Sequence record: OZ346228.1
DNA from: a phage
DNA: 64,000 nt
Reading direction: 5' to 3' (one strand)
Shown: piece by piece, positions 1,050-58,435 of the stretch
How positions within the stretch are numbered: the stretch's first letter is position 1
Layout of the letters: each line of letters starts with the position of its first letter
Program-made: the position numbers and the translations under genes
Notes under the pieces: model-generated
The model's input: the letters and a program-made list of their open reading frames with translations, nothing else
Told to the model about the DNA's origin: nothing
The model's database searches: none

Positions 1050-3121
1050 TGGCAACAGCTGTTTTTAAACCTTACCGTGATTACTCTACAATGGCTGCAC
1101 GGTTTCATTACCGAACAGTTCAGGATACTGCCGTTCCTGGTAGGGATTATGATCATGTTGAGGGCGATGTAACTATCCCAGTTGGGGCAACCAGTATTGA
1201 GATCCCCGTGGAAATTGTTGACAAATTACCCAACAGGTTGCCAAGAAGCTTCTTTATGGAGTTTTCATCAAAATCTCAAGGGGTGATGATTGGAACACAA
1301 AGGGCGAAATGTACAATAGTTTCAGATGAGAATCTTGACAGGATATCTTGGGATACTGTTGAGGAGAGAATGTTTCACCCAAGATATTGGGTTACAACCA
1401 CTCAGCAGACTGAAAGTACCTGTATTGTTGCAGATAACAACTGTTGTATTAACCGTTTAGTGTCAAGAACATATGGAGGTATGGCTGGGTGCATTTGGGA
1501 AACAGTTGACAAGTATGACCATTTCGGTATTGGGTTTGATGATCACTATGAGATGAGAAACACCAAGCTTTGGTTCAGAATGTCAATAACCAACGCCAGC
1601 AACTTCTCCACTCCTGAAAAGATGATTATGACTGTAGACCTTGTTGATGGCACAATCATCTATGTTCCTTTAGCTCAATATGCTGTCAGCATCTCAGAGG
1701 ATAAGAATGTTGCAGAAATTCATATTGATTTTGAGGACTGCGTCGGGATGGACCAGAACAACAACATGATGGGTGTTGATCCTCGGCAGGTGAGAAGGAT
1801 TTTAATACCGCTTATGCCTAAAGACTGGGTAAGTAATAGCACAGACCCGAGAACGGAAAATGTAAAGTGTGAGTTGCGCCTAGATCTGCTTCAGCCAGAC
1901 ACAGGCTGGAAAATGATGCAACTTAACAATATCCAGGTGAGAGAGCACGATGTTGGGATCTGCACCGCATATGACGATATGTGGAACGTGTCTCCTTTAA
2001 GGGTGTTGAACAATATCAAGCGTCTGGGCTATACCGGAACCATAAACCATTATGTTGGTATGAGTCATTATTATGACTACACATGGTCAGGAACCCAATG
2101 GTCTATAAACAGAACAGGAGCGCTAAACGCTGCAGCTTATAAATGGCATGATGATTTTATGTACAATGCCAAACGACATAACTTCGACGTTATGCAATCT
2201 GTAAGTTTTGAGCTTTTCAGCGATGCCTGCCCGTTGGAATGGACCCAAAGAGACTGGAACGATAACTACGCTAAAACAGGGTATACACCTTGTAGCTACC
2301 TCCTGTCTCCAACCATTGAAGAGGGTATGAATTTCCTTACTGCAGTATTTAAGAATTTTGCATCAGCCGCTATGAGAAACAACCTGCCAGTGATTATGCA
2401 GGTTGGTGAACCGTGGTGGTGGTACAATACCGATACTCGTAGACCTTGTATTTATGATTACCCTACAAAACAGGCGTTTTATGATGAGACAGGCGAGTAT
2501 GCATTAGATATTGGGACTATTGACGATCCTAAAACTGGCGGTGTTTACGATAAGTATGTAGCATTTTGTCGTGGTAAGCTTGGCGCTCGTATTGCGGCTA
2601 TTTCAAAGGCAATAAAGGCACACGCTGCATCAGCTCAGATGACAGCTCTGCTGTTTTTCCCAACCATTATGGAAACCGAGCTTACGCAAAAGCTTAACCT
2701 TGCTGACCAATATAAAAAGGAAGCAGGTGCTCTTGATTTCTTCTGCACCGAGTGCTACGATTGGGTGATGCAGGGAGGTATTGAAAAGGCAAAAGAGTCT
2801 GTAAACATACCTATCGTTAAGTTAGGTTGGCAACCGTCTGAAATACAATACCTTGCAGGGTTCGTTCCTAGTAAAGAGCTTGCTCCGGTATATGGCTACG
2901 ACCCAACCAGGAATTACCAAGAATTTTTATGGAGATGTATCTGCGGAAACATGGCAACCATAGAGTATAGATACCCTGAGGTAAAACAGTATGTGTGGGC
3001 ATACCCGCAAGTAATGTCTGACAGCATCACTGTTACAGCCAGAGATTCTACCGTGCTTCATATGGGGCAGGTTGCTCTGAAAGGGTATGTAGAAGATGTT
3101 GTCCCTCCAGACTTCTCATAA
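1049..3121 (+). CDS. hypothetical structural protein (690 aa)
   Basis: Long uninterrupted ORF, translationally coupled to the upstream gene; lies before the tail-fibre genes. Confidence 0.55.
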   Translation: MATAVFKPYRDYSTMAARFHYRTVQDTAVPGRDYDHVEGDVTIPVGATSIEIPVEIVDKLPNRLPRSFFMEFSSKSQGVMIGTQRAKCTIVSDENLDRISWDTVEERMFHPRYWVTTTQQTESTCIVADNNCCINRLVSRTYGGMAGCIWETVDKYDHFGIGFDDHYEMRNTKLWFRMSITNASNFSTPEKMIMTVDLVDGTIIYVPLAQYAVSISEDKNVAEIHIDFEDCVGMDQNNNMMGVDPRQVRRILIPLMPKDWVSNSTDPRTENVKCELRLDLLQPDTGWKMMQLNNIQVREHDVGICTAYDDMWNVSPLRVLNNIKRLGYTGTINHYVGMSHYYDYTWSGTQWSINRTGALNAAAYKWHDDFMYNAKRHNFDVMQSVSFELFSDACPLEWTQRDWNDNYAKTGYTPCSYLLSPTIEEGMNFLTAVFKNFASAAMRNNLPVIMQVGEPWWWYNTDTRRPCIYDYPTKQAFYDETGEYALDIGTIDDPKTGGVYDKYVAFCRGKLGARIAAISKAIKAHAASAQMTALLFFPTIMETELTQKLNLADQYKKEAGALDFFCTECYDWVMQGGIEKAKESVNIPIVKLGWQPSEIQYLAGFVPSKELAPVYGYDPTRNYQEFLWRCICGNMATIEYRYPEVKQYVWAYPQVMSDSITVTARDSTVLHMGQVALKGYVEDVVPPDFS

Positions 3122-4188: not shown

Positions 4189-4773
4189 ATGAAAATACTT
4201 CAAGAGTTTAAACTTTACCAACCAGGATCTGGCGAATACCACTCCAACAAGGAAACCAAGGAGCTGACCCCTCAAGAGGTAGAGGATTACACCGCATACA
4301 CTGGGTATTTTTTACGTAATGATGATGGTGATTGGTATGTGCAGTCACGAACATTACGACAAGAAAATCCAGGGTGTATCTTCCTACTTGTTGACGAGAA
4401 GGGAATTCTTAAGACATCTACAGAAGAACCTGATGCCTTATGGCCTGCTCCAGGTCTTCGTGTGGTTATCGCCAAAAAAGAAGAGGTACCAGAAAACATT
4501 ATGCTTCACCACGACGCTTTGCGTTTAGTTGGTGATGAATTTGTCACAGACAATGAATTCTTTGTTCAACAGGCAGAGGGTGTCATAGAGACAGAACTTG
4601 CTTGGGCTACTGCTAGAATTGGTGCCTATCAAGACATGATTGACCTTGAATATGATCTTACTGATGACCAGAAACGTAACATCAGAGATTTGAAAATGTA
4701 CAGGGTAAAACTTCTTGAAATAGATACATCTAAAGCCCCTGACATTTTCTTCCCAGAGCGACCTACCCTCTAA
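4189..4773 (+). CDS. tail fibre assembly protein (lambda Tfa / P2 G-like)
   Basis: 194 aa; C-terminal KMYRVKLLEIDTSKAPDIFFP matches the conserved Tfa C-terminus ([21 protein letters not shown] in lambda); GGAGG RBS. Confidence 0.75.
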   Translation: MKILQEFKLYQPGSGEYHSNKETKELTPQEVEDYTAYTGYFLRNDDGDWYVQSRTLRQENPGCIFLLVDEKGILKTSTEEPDALWPAPGLRVVIAKKEEVPENIMLHHDALRLVGDEFVTDNEFFVQQAEGVIETELAWATARIGAYQDMIDLEYDLTDDQKRNIRDLKMYRVKLLEIDTSKAPDIFFPERPTL

Positions 4774-41574: not shown

Positions 41575-41602
41575 CCCTGCCAGAAAGGGTGGGGTATTTT
41601 TG
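41575..41602 (+). terminator. rho-independent terminator after ssb
   Basis: GCCCTGCC-AGAAA-GGGTGGGG then TATTTTTG. Confidence 0.65.
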
Positions 41603-41620
41603 TATAAGGAGATCTAAAAA

Positions 41621-42037
41621 ATGACATTAGAAGATATCATTGTTAAACCTGAGAACTATGACCAATACAACCTGTCAACTCAATCTGTAGACCTTGGATG
41701 CGCCACGGTCAGTGCGTGGCTGGTTAACGGAAAAGAGCTGGATAAATGCTTAGAAGCTCACATGTCTATTAACAAGTTTCTGGATGAAAATACTCACTGG
41801 CTTGAGGGTGCAGGAGTATATGCTTCATGGTTGGAAAGTATGGGATTCGACTACCAATCTGAAGAAGGGTGGTGGAGCTATTTAGCTATCTGCCCAGAGA
41901 CGCTGCAATGCTTCATGAAATATTCTGAAGATTTGGAGTACCGGGCGGTGGTTGATAGTGCTATTGCCCGTTATAGCCGTAAACCTTTTTCCCACGACAT
42001 TAAAACTGTGGAAGAGTTTGTTGAAGTTTTCTGTTGA
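41621..42037 (+). CDS. hypothetical protein
   Basis: 138 aa with AAGGAG RBS. Confidence 0.45.
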   Translation: MTLEDIIVKPENYDQYNLSTQSVDLGCATVSAWLVNGKELDKCLEAHMSINKFLDENTHWLEGAGVYASWLESMGFDYQSEEGWWSYLAICPETLQCFMKYSEDLEYRAVVDSAIARYSRKPFSHDIKTVEEFVEVFC

Positions 42038-42133
42038 CACAGGTGGAAAGGTGTGCAATTATAACTTCATAGAACGGGAGGACGTGATGAACGAAGAAAA
42101 CTGGGATGTATAACTAACAGGAGGCCACTGCCC

Positions 42134-42331
42134 ATGATTTATCGAATCCGTGTAAGAGAAGATGCACCAGGCTGTTACTTTGACTGGCGTGGGTGGTGGT
42201 TTCTCCACCCAATGGATGGACTCACAGATAGAATGCTGGATGCTGCCCTTTATACAGATACCGACATAGAATATAATCTCTATCTGAAGGACGGTATAGA
42301 TAACGGCCTGTTTGAAGCAATTCCTGTGTAA
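42134..42331 (+). CDS. hypothetical small protein
   Basis: 65 aa with GGAGG RBS. Confidence 0.4.
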   Translation: MIYRIRVREDAPGCYFDWRGWWFLHPMDGLTDRMLDAALYTDTDIEYNLYLKDGIDNGLFEAIPV

Positions 42332-42399
42332 GAGACTGTAATAGCTATGTTTTATGATCTTCCTGTAGCACCACCACCTGTTGAACCCGGAGAACTAAG

Positions 42400-42825
42400 A
42401 TGATCTATGAAATGCCAAAACTGATTCGTGACGATGCCCAAAACGCCCACACCTTTATCATGGGCAAGCGCATGGATATTATTTGTCATAAAGATTTCTG
42501 GGAAGGTAGTTACTTCACAGAATATTTTGGTAAACTGGATAATGGTCTGCTGATCCAGTTCTACACCGATGCGGAAAACAATATCTGCTGGGAGTTCGAA
42601 ACTGAAGATATCCATAAACTTTTCACCTTCCTAGGTATTAAGGTTGAGGCCAAGTTTGAAGAAGGCGAGTGCGACGATTGTGGATTCTACGAGGTAACAG
42701 ATTTCTATCTCCCAAGTGGTGAGAACCTTTACTATGAAAGCCACTTCGGCAACTCAAATATGCCACAAGGTTGGGATGAGTTTTTTGAAATTGCGGAAGA
42801 GGAGCTGACATACCGTGATTATTGA
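42400..42825 (+). CDS. hypothetical protein (coupled to macrodomain gene)
   Basis: 141-aa ORF; 3' end overlaps the start of the macrodomain ORF. Confidence 0.45.
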   Translation: MIYEMPKLIRDDAQNAHTFIMGKRMDIICHKDFWEGSYFTEYFGKLDNGLLIQFYTDAENNICWEFETEDIHKLFTFLGIKVEAKFEEGECDDCGFYEVTDFYLPSGENLYYESHFGNSNMPQGWDEFFEIAEEELTYRDY

Positions 42826-43273
42826 TACTGTAGCGGGAGATTTAATCTCCCTTTTTAAGAGCGGTGCTGGTCACCTGATCCACGGTTGTAACTGCTTTCA
42901 TACAATGGGTGCAGGCATAGCGAAAGATATTGCCCGTGAGTTCCCTCAAGCACTGGCAGCCGACAAAGAGACTGCCTATGGTAATCTGGACAAGCTGGGT
43001 ATGTTTTCTTGTTGGGAGCATTTTGCCAAGAACAGGGTCGTATATGGAATCAACCTGTATACCCAGTTCTACCCAGGGCCCAATGCTGAATACTTCTCAA
43101 TAATGAAAGGTTTTGAGCGAGTCAACGAGGTATTCAAAGGTGTGTCATTGCCGTTCTACATTCCTAAAATTGGATGCGGTATTGGCGGTCTAAAGTGGGA
43201 ACATGTAGAAGATGTAATTAATCTTGCAACCACAGATATTGATGTGGTTGTAGTAGAGTACAAAAAGTGTTGA
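42815..43273 (+). CDS. macrodomain protein (TARG1/OARD1-like ADP-ribose hydrolase fold)
   Basis: 152 aa; HGCNCFHTMGAGIAKDI and PKIGCGIGGLKWEHV resemble the two signature segments of TARG1/OARD1-type macrodomains; probable GTG start. Confidence 0.7.
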   Translation: MIIDTVAGDLISLFKSGAGHLIHGCNCFHTMGAGIAKDIAREFPQALAADKETAYGNLDKLGMFSCWEHFAKNRVVYGINLYTQFYPGPNAEYFSIMKGFERVNEVFKGVSLPFYIPKIGCGIGGLKWEHVEDVINLATTDIDVVVVEYKKC

Positions 43274-43524
43274 CGACCATCTTCTGAGGTGATATAGTTT
43301 CCACAACAACTAAGAGAGGAGAGCACTGTGGAGACTAAAATCTTAATTCTTGCTGTGGTAGATACAACCGAAGGAGCTATATTCGAATCTGCAGGGGGGT
43401 ATTTCTACCTACCATACGGAAAAAGAACTTCCGAGCCAAGTAAAGATTCAATCCTCAAGGTGTTCCCGTGTGCTTTCTGGCTGGAGATTTTGGTATAAGA
43501 TTGCAGAGGATTTGGGAGAGAATT

Positions 43525-43719
43525 ATGAGAAACAAGAAAGAGCTTTACTCTGGTGAGTGGATCAACGATCAACAGGTGGGAGAGGTAACCTGCTTCCGAT
43601 GTTTTACCAGGTACAATCTTAAAACTGCACCAAAAAGTGTTCCAAAGACTGACGGTTATTACATAAAAGAACCTCATTGCCCAAAATGTAAATGCCGATT
43701 ATACTGGAGTAACCTGTAA
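43525..43719 (+). CDS. small zinc-ribbon protein
   Basis: About 64 aa from internal ATG (MRNKKELYS...); CFRC...CPKCKC cysteine pairs; start approximate. Confidence 0.4.
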   Translation: MRNKKELYSGEWINDQQVGEVTCFRCFTRYNLKTAPKSVPKTDGYYIKEPHCPKCKCRLYWSNL

Positions 43720-43782
43720 AAGATTGACATCTGAAAACTGCAGTGTATAATATATGCATAAACTAACAGAGAGTGATGTATT

Positions 43783-43974
43783 ATGGTAATTTTTAACCGG
43801 GATGGTATCATAGTTAGACAGCACCCGTTCCTTGAATACTATCAAATTGAGCAATGGTGCTACGGGGATTGCAGTCACTCCTATGGGCAAAGTTGGGGAT
43901 ATCGTACAGTTTTTGAATCCACAGACCTTGACAAAGTAAAACAGAAAGTTTTAGAACTTCTTAACAACAAGTGA
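43783..43974 (+). CDS. hypothetical small protein
   Basis: 63-aa ORF. Confidence 0.4.
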   Translation: MVIFNRDGIIVRQHPFLEYYQIEQWCYGDCSHSYGQSWGYRTVFESTDLDKVKQKVLELLNNK

Positions 43975-43984
43975 GTATCGTGCC

Positions 43985-44317
43985 ATGGTAACATTGGAAA
44001 GACGTAAAGCTATTGCCGCCACACTGGCAGACATCTTTTGGGATTGTAATTTAAAATCTACCCGAAATTGTGGTGCATCTGTAGATGTATTATTCCCACG
44101 GCCTACTATTGTTGCAATGGGCAACCTGCTCGATGTGGTATATGGAGCATGGGACAAGGAAGGTGGATTCTATATCTGGCAACCTGACTACGGGACTTGG
44201 AAAGAGGTTAGTGGTTCTTCGGACTTCACTCCTGCAGTGGCTAAAATGGATGGCTGGAAAATCTATGTCGGTAACGACATGGAACTGAAAGGCGAAATTG
44301 TTTACTGGTTACCTTAA
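43985..44317 (+). CDS. hypothetical protein
   Basis: 110-aa ORF. Confidence 0.45.
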   Translation: MVTLERRKAIAATLADIFWDCNLKSTRNCGASVDVLFPRPTIVAMGNLLDVVYGAWDKEGGFYIWQPDYGTWKEVSGSSDFTPAVAKMDGWKIYVGNDMELKGEIVYWLP

Positions 44318-44338
44318 GAAAGTCCAGGAGATAAAGTT

Positions 44339-44584
44339 ATGAACAAAGGGTGGACATTTGTAGACGGCGTTAAAAACATGCCTCTAGGAAAGTATATTGT
44401 AGCCATGGCAGATGAGAATGGCAAGGTTGATTTCGGAGTTTGCGAGGTTGTTCTTGCAGGATCTGGTGACTATGCTCACAAAACTGGGATAATTAACGGT
44501 CATTTCTACTTTGATTACAACCCTGTTGTGGCGTATATGGCTATGCCAGAGTTCGAGCTCCCAAAGGAAGGTGCAGATGTTTAA
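44339..44584 (+). CDS. hypothetical small protein
   Basis: 81 aa with GGAG RBS. Confidence 0.45.
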   Translation: MNKGWTFVDGVKNMPLGKYIVAMADENGKVDFGVCEVVLAGSGDYAHKTGIINGHFYFDYNPVVAYMAMPEFELPKEGADV

Positions 44585-56724: not shown

Positions 56725-57030
56725 TCATTCTACAGAGCGTTTGAACAGAATGTCTGCCTCAGACATGTGCTCAACCTCTTCTTCGATTTTAGCGCGACGT
56801 TTTTCAGCCTCATAGCGAATATCGAACTCGGTAGCCACCAGAGATTTGATGAATTTAGGAGAATACAGGTGATCCTGCTTCTCAACGAGAATGATATCCT
56901 TAATGGCATCTTTCAGATCTTTAATCTGAAGTTGGAGTTCTACCAGTTCTTCGATTGTTTTGCGAAGGCGATCACGCTCTGCAGTGTCAGAAGGAAGAGA
57001 GGTGAACAGTTCAACTTTAGATTTAGCCAT
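56725..57030 (-). CDS. hypothetical coiled-coil protein
   Basis: 101 aa; AAGGAGA RBS; heptad-like pattern. Confidence 0.5.
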   Translation of the reverse strand: MAKSKVELFTSLPSDTAERDRLRKTIEELVELQLQIKDLKDAIKDIILVEKQDHLYSPKFIKSLVATEFDIRYEAEKRRAKIEEEVEHMSEADILFKRSVE

Positions 57031-57058
57031 AGTAAGAGTCTCCTTATGTTGTTTTAAA

Positions 57059-57310
57059 TTAACGTTCTACAAAAATACCGTTCAGTTCAATAACCAGGAA
57101 TTTCTGGTCTTCACTATCGTCTCGTGCCAGCACCTCACAGACGTATCGGTCATCCCCATCATCATCGCAGTCAAATACAAGACTGAGGACTTTATCATGG
57201 TAAACCTTCGCCACTACCGCCTCGTAAGTATTGCCGATTGTGAATCCAAGATAATCTCCGATGCATTTGACAACAACATGGTCTCCAGCATTTAAGTCAA
57301 TCTTCGTCAT
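57059..57310 (-). CDS. hypothetical protein
   Basis: Start at internal ATG (MTKIDLNAGDHVVV...) preceded by AAGGAG; the track start at 57376 is further upstream. Confidence 0.45.
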   Translation of the reverse strand: MTKIDLNAGDHVVVKCIGDYLGFTIGNTYEAVVAKVYHDKVLSLVFDCDDDGDDRYVCEVLARDDSEDQKFLVIELNGIFVER

Positions 57311-57465
57311 TACTGCGCTCCTTGGGTAATAATACTGTATGTAAAACTTTAACCAGAGATGTGAATAACGCCCCAAAACACACCGATAGCGCTAAAACAG
57401 ACAAGGCCATCATTAAAGCTTCAGTAAAATCAGTCATTCCTCACCTCTTGTTAGCCACTATACTA

Positions 57466-57729
57466 TCATTTATCCTTTTCGTCAAGAACTTTTTTAAATC
57501 TTTCAGGGATATCTCCCGTTCTTAGATAGTTCATGACCTCGCAAGGTTCCCACTTGAATTTCTTACAGAGCAGGGCGGCTGAGATTGTTTCATTGCGAAA
57601 AGAAAGGATATTAATATCCCACTCTGAGAACCCCAACTTCCGAAGGGTAGCTACAGAAATCCTCACCGCAACCCAGCAGCAAAAACATGCAACAAACGCC
57701 ACTGCTACAACCCACATCAGGATGTTCAT
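57466..57729 (-). CDS. hypothetical membrane protein
   Basis: 87 aa; N-terminal hydrophobic helix (ILMWVVAVAFVACFCCWVAV). Confidence 0.45.
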   Translation of the reverse strand: MNILMWVVAVAFVACFCCWVAVRISVATLRKLGFSEWDINILSFRNETISAALLCKKFKWEPCEVMNYLRTGDIPERFKKVLDEKDK

Positions 57730-57818
57730 ATAAGCACCTTACTGAAATACAAGACACAGTGTTAAGGTTACTGACCAGCAAATAATTAGCAGGACCATTG
57801 CAACCTTGGCAAGATTTA

Positions 57819-58106
57819 TCATAGTGCCTCTAAGATTTCATATCCTTCAGGTCGAAATACAAGCCACTCCGTGGCTCCGTTTGGTCGATACGCTTTATAC
57901 AGAACAACCTGATCTCGGCACATGCACATGGCTACATAGTTTTCATCCACACCTGCAGCCTGCATTGCATCTTCTTCTCCGGCAACTGCTTTGCTTACAA
58001 CTTCCTTGGTAGGTAGGTGTGCGATCAGCTCGTCACCATCATTAATTCCAAAATGACTGAGTTCTCCATTGGTATCTTTAATCTTAATCTTAACCAGATC
58101 TTTCAT
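57819..58106 (-). CDS. small acidic protein (paralog family)
   Basis: 95 aa; MK..KIKIKD start and acidic EILEAL end. Confidence 0.45.
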   Translation of the reverse strand: MKDLVKIKIKDTNGELSHFGINDGDELIAHLPTKEVVSKAVAGEEDAMQAAGVDENYVAMCMCRDQVVLYKAYRPNGATEWLVFRPEGYEILEAL

Positions 58107-58435
58107 TAGTCTTTCTCCAGGTTCAAAGGTCCTAAGATTTCATATGCCAGATTAGAAGTTACCAGAGGGTCTTCTGCATCTTTAGTATTGTACCACCCGT
58201 GAATAACCAGAGTCCCACTTTGTTTCATATCCAACTGGAACTGTTCTGCAGTTTCCTCATCCAGCTCCAAGATTTCCATAAGGTATTTGATGTTAGGAAG
58301 GTATGCAGCTGTTACAGTTCCCTCCACCAAACCTTCGGGCCAACCTACATCCGGATGACAAGTAGGAACCAGGTTGGTCAACTTAATGGTGTACGCTTTT
58401 TCTGCACGAGCCTTCAGTAACGGGTCAATCTTCAT
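58106..58435 (-). CDS. small acidic protein
   Basis: 109 aa; start overlaps upstream stop. Confidence 0.45.
   Translation of the reverse strand: MKIDPLLKARAEKAYTIKLTNLVPTCHPDVGWPEGLVEGTVTAAYLPNIKYLMEILELDEETAEQFQLDMKQSGTLVIHGWYNTKDAEDPLVTSNLAYEILGPLNLEKD

Follow-up and report, generated by a model that had tools for sequence, protein, structure and literature searches.

A macrodomain gene of the T4 Tk.4 (AdfM) family in an rV5-like coliphage and its probable role against DarTG2

Two phage macrodomain proteins have independently received the name AdfM. The first is encoded by tk.4 of phage T4, which was the single significant hit when a T4 transposon library was grown on a DarTG2 host (HIDEN-SEQ); a clean tk.4 knockout sensitises T4 to DarTG2, and the gene, conditionally essential on the DarTG2 host, was named adfM, for anti-DarT factor Macrodomain, with enzymatic removal by T4 AdfM graded only as “likely” (bioRxiv 10.1101/2025.11.20.689424). 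A role of tk.4 as a DarTG2 counter fits the lasting resistance of T4, which is still resistant to DarTG2 when both adfA and adfN are missing (PMC11825919). The second is gp104 of the chimallivirus PhiKZ, a stand-alone macrodomain that protects the phage and that was found biochemically to remove DarT2-made ADP-ribose from DNA (Cell Rep 2026, PMC13309987). Among cellular proteins, SCO6735 (5e3b), a DNA-damage-induced protein of Streptomyces coelicolor, removes ADP-ribose linked to thymidine in DNA and rescues cells from the toxicity of DarT, for which its Gln85 is essential (PMC9411070). Other relatives of solved structure are the macrodomain of DarG2 (5m3i, 5m31, 5m3e), BT1257 of Bacteroides (2fg1), human TARG1/OARD1 (4j5r, 4j5s) and Poa1p of yeast (6lfq-6lfu). 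Here, we compare with these systems a macrodomain gene found in a window of 64,000 nucleotides, which is the whole stretch of phage DNA that was analyzed (sequence record OZ346228.1).

From 41600 to 44400, the window shares 99.8% identity with Escherichia phage JLBYU08 (Vequintavirus murica); identities of 96-99% were found to over 100 further rV5-like phages, among them the BASEL phages Bas53 and Bas54 (the latter, MaxBurger, being ~96.5% identical to the window in the region of the macrodomain gene). Both open reading frames of the original prediction were recovered on the plus strand, as part of a long cluster of small genes on one strand that follows the DNA polymerase and SSB-like genes. 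The upstream one, ORF1 (42400-42825), encodes 141 aa and runs from an ATG to a TGA stop codon at 42823-42825; the macrodomain gene, a homologue of T4 tk.4/adfM (42815-43273), encodes 152 aa from a GTG at 42815-42817, so that its start overlaps the end of ORF1 by 11 nt. A Shine-Dalgarno-like GAGGAG (42799-42804, plus strand) can be read from the sequence 10 nt upstream of the GTG, within the 3' end of ORF1, and the GenBank record of phage Murica has a ribosome-binding site annotated at the equivalent position. The GTG start is supported by identical gene calls in GenBank records and by the relatives L007, JSE and L008, in which this codon is ATG. A chance origin of either ORF can be dismissed, given that both have profile matches, that 279 homologues of the macrodomain ORF were found and that ORF1 is conserved in Krischvirus. 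The macrodomain gene is already annotated as encoding a macro-domain protein in the JLBYU08 record; labels across GenBank records include “macro domain protein”, “phosphatase”, “Poa1p-like family protein” and “Tk.4 conserved hypothetical protein”, the last being the one used in the record of rV5 itself. No RNA genes were found in the window by tRNA and Rfam scans over its full length.

The 152-aa protein matches phrog_335 (1.4e-59), and the profile search proposed with the original prediction gave a match to the Pfam Macro profile (PF01661) of 25.9 bits, above the gathering score of 22, aligned only over residues 22-53. [quoted passage not shown] A profile built from 39 homologues scored 46-55 bits on DarG, SCO6735, BT1257, TARG1 and Poa1p, and ~21 bits on coronavirus Mac1; as the first five all fall within 46-55 bits, assignment to a subfamily by score was rejected. 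An AlphaFold2 model of the protein (pLDDT 91, pTM 0.86) returned TARG1, Poa1p, DarG, BT1257 and SCO6735 as top Foldseek matches in the PDB, at TM ~0.75, with TARG1 at the head (E 7e-10, TM 0.75-0.81); all top matches are macrodomains or designed enzymes of the same fold. The DarG model of PADLOC also matches (1.4e-13), while the NCBIfam DarG equivalog scores 47.3 bits, far short of its cutoff (250), since the match covers the macrodomain half of that model alone (positions 4-144 of 338). With solved-structure relatives in this class closer than MacroD, PARG or viral Mac1, we are confident that the protein is a macrodomain of the ALC1-like/TARG1-like class, to which TARG1, DarG, SCO6735 and Poa1p belong.

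The two signature segments that had been pointed out in the translation, HGCNCFHTMGAGIAKDI (residues 23-39) and PKIGCGIGGLKWEHV (residues 117-131), are indeed present; they are the counterparts of the pair of glycine-rich loops with which macrodomains bind ADP-ribose. The key residues of the protein are H23, N26, the G32-A-G34-I-A36 loop, Q84 and the P117-K-I-G-C-G-I-G-G125 loop. Across 39 homologues of ~40% identity, the invariant positions are H23, G24, N26, C27, M31, G34, A36, P44, D50, N80, Y82, Q84, P117, G120, G122 and G125. In profile-to-structure alignments, Q84 aligns with the catalytic lysine of TARG1 (K84) and of DarG (“PTK”) on the one hand, and with the glutamine of SCO6735 and BT1257 (“NMIGQH”) on the other. 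TARG1 and the phage protein have similar glycine-rich loops, but the Lys84-Asp125 dyad of TARG1 is replaced by Gln84 (“lYtQ” versus “LITK”) and Gly125 (“GcGigGl” versus “GCGLDRL”), and orthology to TARG1/OARD1 was rejected on these grounds. Of the description as a TARG1/OARD1-like macrodomain, the assignment to the class is thus borne out by sequence and fold matches, while a TARG1 orthologue is ruled out by the absent catalytic dyad.

The comparison with DarG2 has a similar outcome. The active-site asparagine of DarG2 (N22 in the Taq protein) is kept, N26 aligning with the asparagine of the DarG “VNC” motif, and the spacing from N26 to Q84 is 58 residues, equal to that from N22 to K80 in DarG; Lys80, however, is missing, with “NLYTQ” aligned to “NFPTK” of M. 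tuberculosis DarG. The phage protein also differs from DarG2 in having neither the C-terminal DarT-binding domain nor an adjacent darT, its neighbors being small phage ORFs. PhiKZ gp104, which is of the same structural class, likewise shares the asparagine (N23, aligned with N26 here), but is only 22% identical (E 8e-5), and has Lys78 in “FPTKDNW” where the 152-aa protein has Gln84 in “YTQFYPG”; moreover, gp104 is imported into the phage nucleus, and rV5-like phages build none. The site instead matches the lysine-less type of SCO6735 and BT1257 (H24, N27 and Q85 in SCO6735), as judged from the alignment of the profile to 5e3b, in which His24, Asn27 and Gln85 correspond to the family-invariant H23, N26 and Q84. 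At ~22% identity, the resemblance to SCO6735 does not extend to K34 and K89 or to the longer mobile loop: “MGAGIA” stands against “WGKGF” and “QFYPGPN” against “QHGMKTGSKG”, and the two lysine positions fall at A33 and in the Y86/P87 region.

In terms of sequence, the protein belongs to the family of T4 Tk.4 (AdfM), to which it aligns over residues 1-150 with 39% identity, 65% positives and an E value of 1e-43. The two have in common the motifs HGCNCFHTMG.G.A, NLYTQF.PGPN and P.IG.GIG, and both are stand-alone proteins of similar size encoded by non-essential accessory genes; they differ in the phages that carry them (Vequintavirinae versus Straboviridae) and in their neighbors (ORF1 versus vs and tk in T4). 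Beyond Vequintavirinae, its closest relatives are the Tk.4 proteins of Krischvirus (JSE), at 69% identity. A tblastn search of 50,697 phage records returned relatives in 2,742 of them, spanning T4-like phages (in which tk.4 lies between vs and tk), FelixO1-like and Vi1-like phages and many other myoviruses. An anti-DarTG2 phenotype has been demonstrated within this family for the T4 member only, and a literature search found no direct data on Vequintavirinae against DarTG2.

On the strength of this homology, we consider it probable that the gene encodes an accessory counter-defense enzyme, an ADP-ribose-binding macrodomain that removes DarT2 marks. In the mechanism that we propose, the DarT2 toxin of the host would ADP-ribosylate thymidines in single-stranded phage DNA; the phage protein would bind the ADP-ribose through its loops G32-A-G34-I-A36 and G120-C-G-I-G-G125, and would hydrolyze the base-ribose bond with a His23/Asn26/Gln84 site, by which replicable DNA would be restored on DarTG2 hosts. 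The active site is lysine-less as in SCO6735, and not of the lysine type of DarG2, TARG1 or chimallivirus AdfM, and ORF1 would be a separate, lineage-restricted gene that is co-transcribed and whose end overlaps the start of the macrodomain gene. The suggestion in the original prediction that the gene is an anti-defense factor against DarT-type systems gains support from the homology to T4 Tk.4. Because that homologue has been characterized experimentally, the anti-DarT role is already in the literature and the idea is not new; the gene appears to be a further member of a recently characterized kind of phage counter-defense. Several observations speak against this reading: the identity to T4 Tk.4 is only 39%, the protein has neither the catalytic lysine of DarG nor counterparts of the lysines K34 and K89 with which SCO6735 positions DNA, its pI of 5.9 is mildly acidic, the motif most like its N-terminal HxCNCxx[ST]xGxGIA is that of Poa1p, an ADP-ribose-1''-phosphate phosphatase, and homologues in some Vibrio and Acinetobacter phages lie beside NAD-salvage-like genes, which hints at small-molecule substrates.

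The last two of these observations bear on a different function, in which the protein would mainly process soluble ADP-ribose derivatives rather than modified DNA, be it as a Poa1p-like phosphatase or as a hydrolase of ADP-ribose-derived immune signals or toxic metabolites, and might thereby feed the reconstitution of NAD+. Near the N terminus, LIHGCNCFHTMGAGIA aligns in register with LIHSCNCNGSWGGGIA of Poa1p, giving a nearly identical LIH.CNC..[ST].G.GIA in which H23 is identical and S30 is conservatively replaced by T30, and these two positions are the ones mutated in PDB entries 6lfs and 6lft. Annotations as “phosphatase / A1pp” occur in the family, the neighboring genes in the Acinetobacter and Vibrio phages are those for nicotinamide phosphoribosyltransferase or ribose-phosphate pyrophosphokinase, and Iyer et al. 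make the case that low-molecular-weight ADP-ribose derivatives are the main targets of phage Macro domains (PMC9503650). The similarity to Poa1p, a protein of 177-180 aa, is nonetheless limited to the loops, and at 50 bits is no higher than that to DarG, SCO6735 and TARG1 (52-55 bits). Poa1p acts in tRNA splicing, and the macrodomain gene has no such pathway context; in the record that matches the window, its annotated neighbors include none for NAD salvage or RNA repair (KptA/2H). As the sole known genetic phenotype of the family is the DarTG2 sensitivity of T4 delta-tk.4, we regard a main role on soluble substrates as unlikely.

Slightly less probable again, in our estimate, is that the protein counters an ADP-ribosyltransferase defense by a route other than the hydrolysis of thymidine-linked ADP-ribose, such as inhibiting DarT2 by binding, or erasing protein- or RNA-linked ADP-ribose made by other systems (for example, mRNA modification of the CmdTAC type). 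Catalytically dead SCO6735, DarG and TARG1 inhibit DarT in vitro by interaction, and SCO6735 and TARG1 act on protein substrates too (PMC9411070). TARG1 also removes ADP-ribose from RNA and from DNA 5'-phosphate ends (PMC11833690); for SCO6735 on RNA phosphate ends, the results of the same study report no activity, while its discussion calls the protein active (PMC11833690). The absence of the catalytic lysine, in addition, leaves the chemistry open. Against such a route, H23, N26, Q84 and both phosphate-binding loops are strictly kept among homologues of ~40% identity, which points to a catalytic pocket and not to a binding surface; the protein is a single domain of 152 aa that, as its low score on the DarG equivalog reflects, has no counterpart of the DarT-binding C-terminal domain of DarG; and no data tie the family to CmdTAC or other ADP-ribosyltransferase-based systems. 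Removal of DarT2 marks from DNA is the function that we prefer for the macrodomain protein.

ORF1 corresponds to phrog_8157 along its entire length (4e-81). Its product is acidic, with a pI of 4.2, and shares with its relatives a C-terminal motif, EGECDDCG..V.D..LPSG..Y.E.HFGN.N.P..W.EFF, which includes C91-x-x-C94 and H115. No match to it was found in Pfam, PADLOC or NCBIfam, and its confident structural model (pLDDT 89) has no structural neighbor in the PDB or BFVD. It forms only 8 clusters among 5.8 billion proteins, and an exhaustive profile search yielded ~10 small true relatives among 1.84 billion representatives; long, multi-stretch matches to VWD/TIL, Ig and HA-domain proteins were rejected as spurious, as these are without an ORF1-like domain. 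Within phages, ORF1 was found in 177 records, from Vequintavirus and, at 37-39% identity, from Krischvirus.

From the overlap of the two genes, the original prediction had suggested a two-gene module. In its strongest form, this would make ORF1 and the macrodomain an obligate pair coupled in translation, with ORF1 as a partner, regulator or specificity factor. The 11-nt overlap and the Shine-Dalgarno sequence within ORF1 would fit such a pair, as would the strong acidity of ORF1, which some phage inhibitor proteins share, and the same order and overlap are kept in the relative L007, whose macrodomain protein is only 80% identical. The distribution of the two genes, however, does not follow this pattern: the macrodomain family is present in 2,742 phage records, ORF1 in 177. 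In the Krischvirus Phi1, the ORF1 homologue adjoins dam, and more than 20 genes (~9 kb) separate it from tk.4. In a 138-kb Vequintavirinae-like contig (L095), which has an ORF1 homologue of 71% identity, the next gene, in the place of the macrodomain gene, is an unrelated one of phrog_12958, so that ORF1 is present there without the macrodomain gene. As L007 keeps the arrangement and Phi1 and L095 do not, the adjacency is stable within the genus, and not beyond it. The overlap as such is unremarkable, since start/stop overlaps are common in the cluster (in the JLBYU08 annotation of this region, 14 pairs of neighboring genes on the same strand overlap, by 1-44 nt); in T4, tk.4 overlaps the unrelated upstream gene vs by 4 nt, and vs also stands before tk.4 in JSE. 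No domain or fold relative is detectable for ORF1. We consequently hold an obligate module to be very improbable, and we conclude from the comparison of genomes that ORF1 is a lineage-restricted neighbor rather than a conserved partner of the macrodomain gene.

Both genes have equivalents in Bas54, namely bas54_0091 for ORF1 and bas54_0092 for the macrodomain gene, and a saturated transposon library of Bas54 was screened on three hosts, Escherichia coli K-12, CFE303 and CFE311, on which the macrodomain gene was non-essential (bioRxiv 10.1101/2025.11.20.689424). On K-12, both were classed as non-essential, with 21 of 23 TA sites disrupted in bas54_0091 and all 31 of 31 in bas54_0092, and neither gene was depleted on the clinical isolate CFE303 (bioRxiv 10.1101/2025.11.20.689424). 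Natural variants agree with these data that both genes are dispensable. Deletion or truncation variants of the macrodomain gene occur in P0017, P0018, P0046 and phage V18, the forms in P0018, P0046 and V18 being truncated. In a 135.5-kb contig, an in-frame deletion between two copies of CCAGTTCTAC (at 42555 and 43063 of the window) fuses residues 1-55 of ORF1 to residues 85-152 of the macrodomain protein.

A further feature lies within the coding sequence of the macrodomain gene. At 42835-42856 on the plus strand, 10 nt after the stop codon of ORF1, codons 7-13 contain a hairpin (GGGAGAT-TTA-ATCTCCC) followed by TTTTT, which was picked up as a terminator-like scan match and which is annotated as a terminator in phage Murica. 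The stem recurs at these codons, as GGGCGAT..ATCGCCC in Krischvirus, GGGTGAT..ATCACCC in an uncultured T4-like phage, GGGCGAT..GTCGCCC in T4 and other T-even-like phages and AGGCGAC..GTCGCCT in L027, and is absent from more distant members of the family. Covariation links the third position of codon 9 (Gly) to the first position of codon 13 (Ser/Ala/Thr), and a stem of at least 6 bp arises in only 4-12.5% of the synonymous encodings of each peptide. In an alignment chosen by protein similarity, and not by the hairpin, the covariation score was 0.246, compared to 0.168 for shuffles; this score was reached by 2 of 500 shuffles, and controls slid along the sequence gave at most 0.121. These comparisons suggest that the hairpin is a selected RNA (or DNA) structure, which may possibly act as an attenuator or translation-control element.

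Taken further, the lysine-less pocket, the hairpin and the position of ORF1 could be read together as the marks of a distinct lysine-less anti-ADP-ribosyltransferase branch formed by AdfM of the Tk.4 type, with broader substrates than AdfM of the DarG2 type (DNA as well as protein or RNA-phosphate ADP-ribose), a dosage attenuated by the hairpin and ORF1 as an accessory in Vequintavirus; we put this forward as a long shot. What can be said with less reserve is that the invariant glutamine of the Tk.4-type AdfM family, opposite the lysine of DarG2 and chimallivirus AdfM, is not stated in the papers cited here. This glutamine groups the Tk.4-type family with SCO6735, and implies that macrodomains of two distinct chemistries were recruited by phages to counter one toxin. 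We regard this contrast between glutamine and lysine as a modest mechanistic lead, and not as a new kind of system. For the biology of these phages, the rV5-like (Vequintavirinae) coliphages, themselves candidates for use in therapy, join with this finding the phages with a probable DarTG2 counter-defense, and the predicted counter may help to forecast their host range on DarTG2-positive E. coli.

Two phage contigs differ from the window at the macrodomain gene (42815-43273, + strand) and ORF1, the upstream gene that overlaps it (42400-42825, + strand). In a 135.5-kb phage contig (locus L096, 2501-2866), the fusion protein P0017 consists of residues 1-55 of ORF1 joined to residues 85-152 of the macrodomain protein. 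The boundaries of this natural in-frame deletion are formed by copies of CCAGTTCTAC, one per gene, which in the window lie at 42555-42564 in ORF1 and at 43063-43072 in the macrodomain gene; joint loss of both genes is therefore possible. In a 138-kb ENA contig from a Vequintavirinae-like phage (locus L095, 2501-3380), a homologue of ORF1 with 71% identity is followed by an unrelated gene of 133 aa, phrog_12958, in the place of the macrodomain gene. This slot behaves like an exchangeable accessory-gene position.

Within the macrodomain gene, codons 7-13 contain a hairpin with a 7-bp stem and a U-tract (42835-42856, + strand), which is labeled as a terminator in one GenBank record. Vequintavirus and Krischvirus keep the hairpin, as do T4 and further T4-like phages, and 3 of its 7 pairs carry compensatory changes; its counterparts lie at 3021-3045 in both of the compared loci L004 and L008 and at about 4350-4375 (- strand) in the T4 locus (L090). 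More remote members of the family do not have the hairpin.

Downstream, a 10/12 match to the sigma-70 consensus with an extended -10 TG begins at the macrodomain stop codon (43270-43298, + strand), and a perfect sigma-70 consensus, TTGACA-16 nt-TATAAT, is found 450 nt 3' of the gene (43724-43751, + strand), suggesting that the surrounding small-gene cluster holds several host-type promoters. The second gene 3' of the macrodomain gene, an 83-aa ORF (43468-43719, + strand), matches the phage zinc-binding domain PF23903 (Pfam, 1.6e-22).

Elsewhere in the window, few ORFs are present at about 56800-58400, between gene clusters transcribed in opposite directions, and no tRNA, Rfam family or strong repeats were found in this stretch. 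Judged by position, it appears to be the counterpart of a roughly 2-kb intergenic region of the near-identical phage Bas54 that yielded no transposon insertions in the HIDEN-SEQ study (preprint, bioRxiv 10.1101/2025.11.20.689424).

Among the database records, 16 GenBank MG0656xx entries (e.g., MG065659.1 and MG065655.1) are titled “Campylobacter phage”, with C. jejuni as host. Across the macrodomain-gene region they show about 96-97% identity to the rV5-like E. coli phage of the window, and they are probably mislabeled or contaminant assemblies.

In Acinetobacter and Vibrio phages, macrodomain homologues adjoin genes for nicotinamide phosphoribosyltransferase or ribose-phosphate pyrophosphokinase (MT188223.1, PV611675.1, NC_055801.1 and MT460515.1; matches H67, H72, H80 and H81), which hints that the homologues are tied to NAD+ reconstitution in those lineages.
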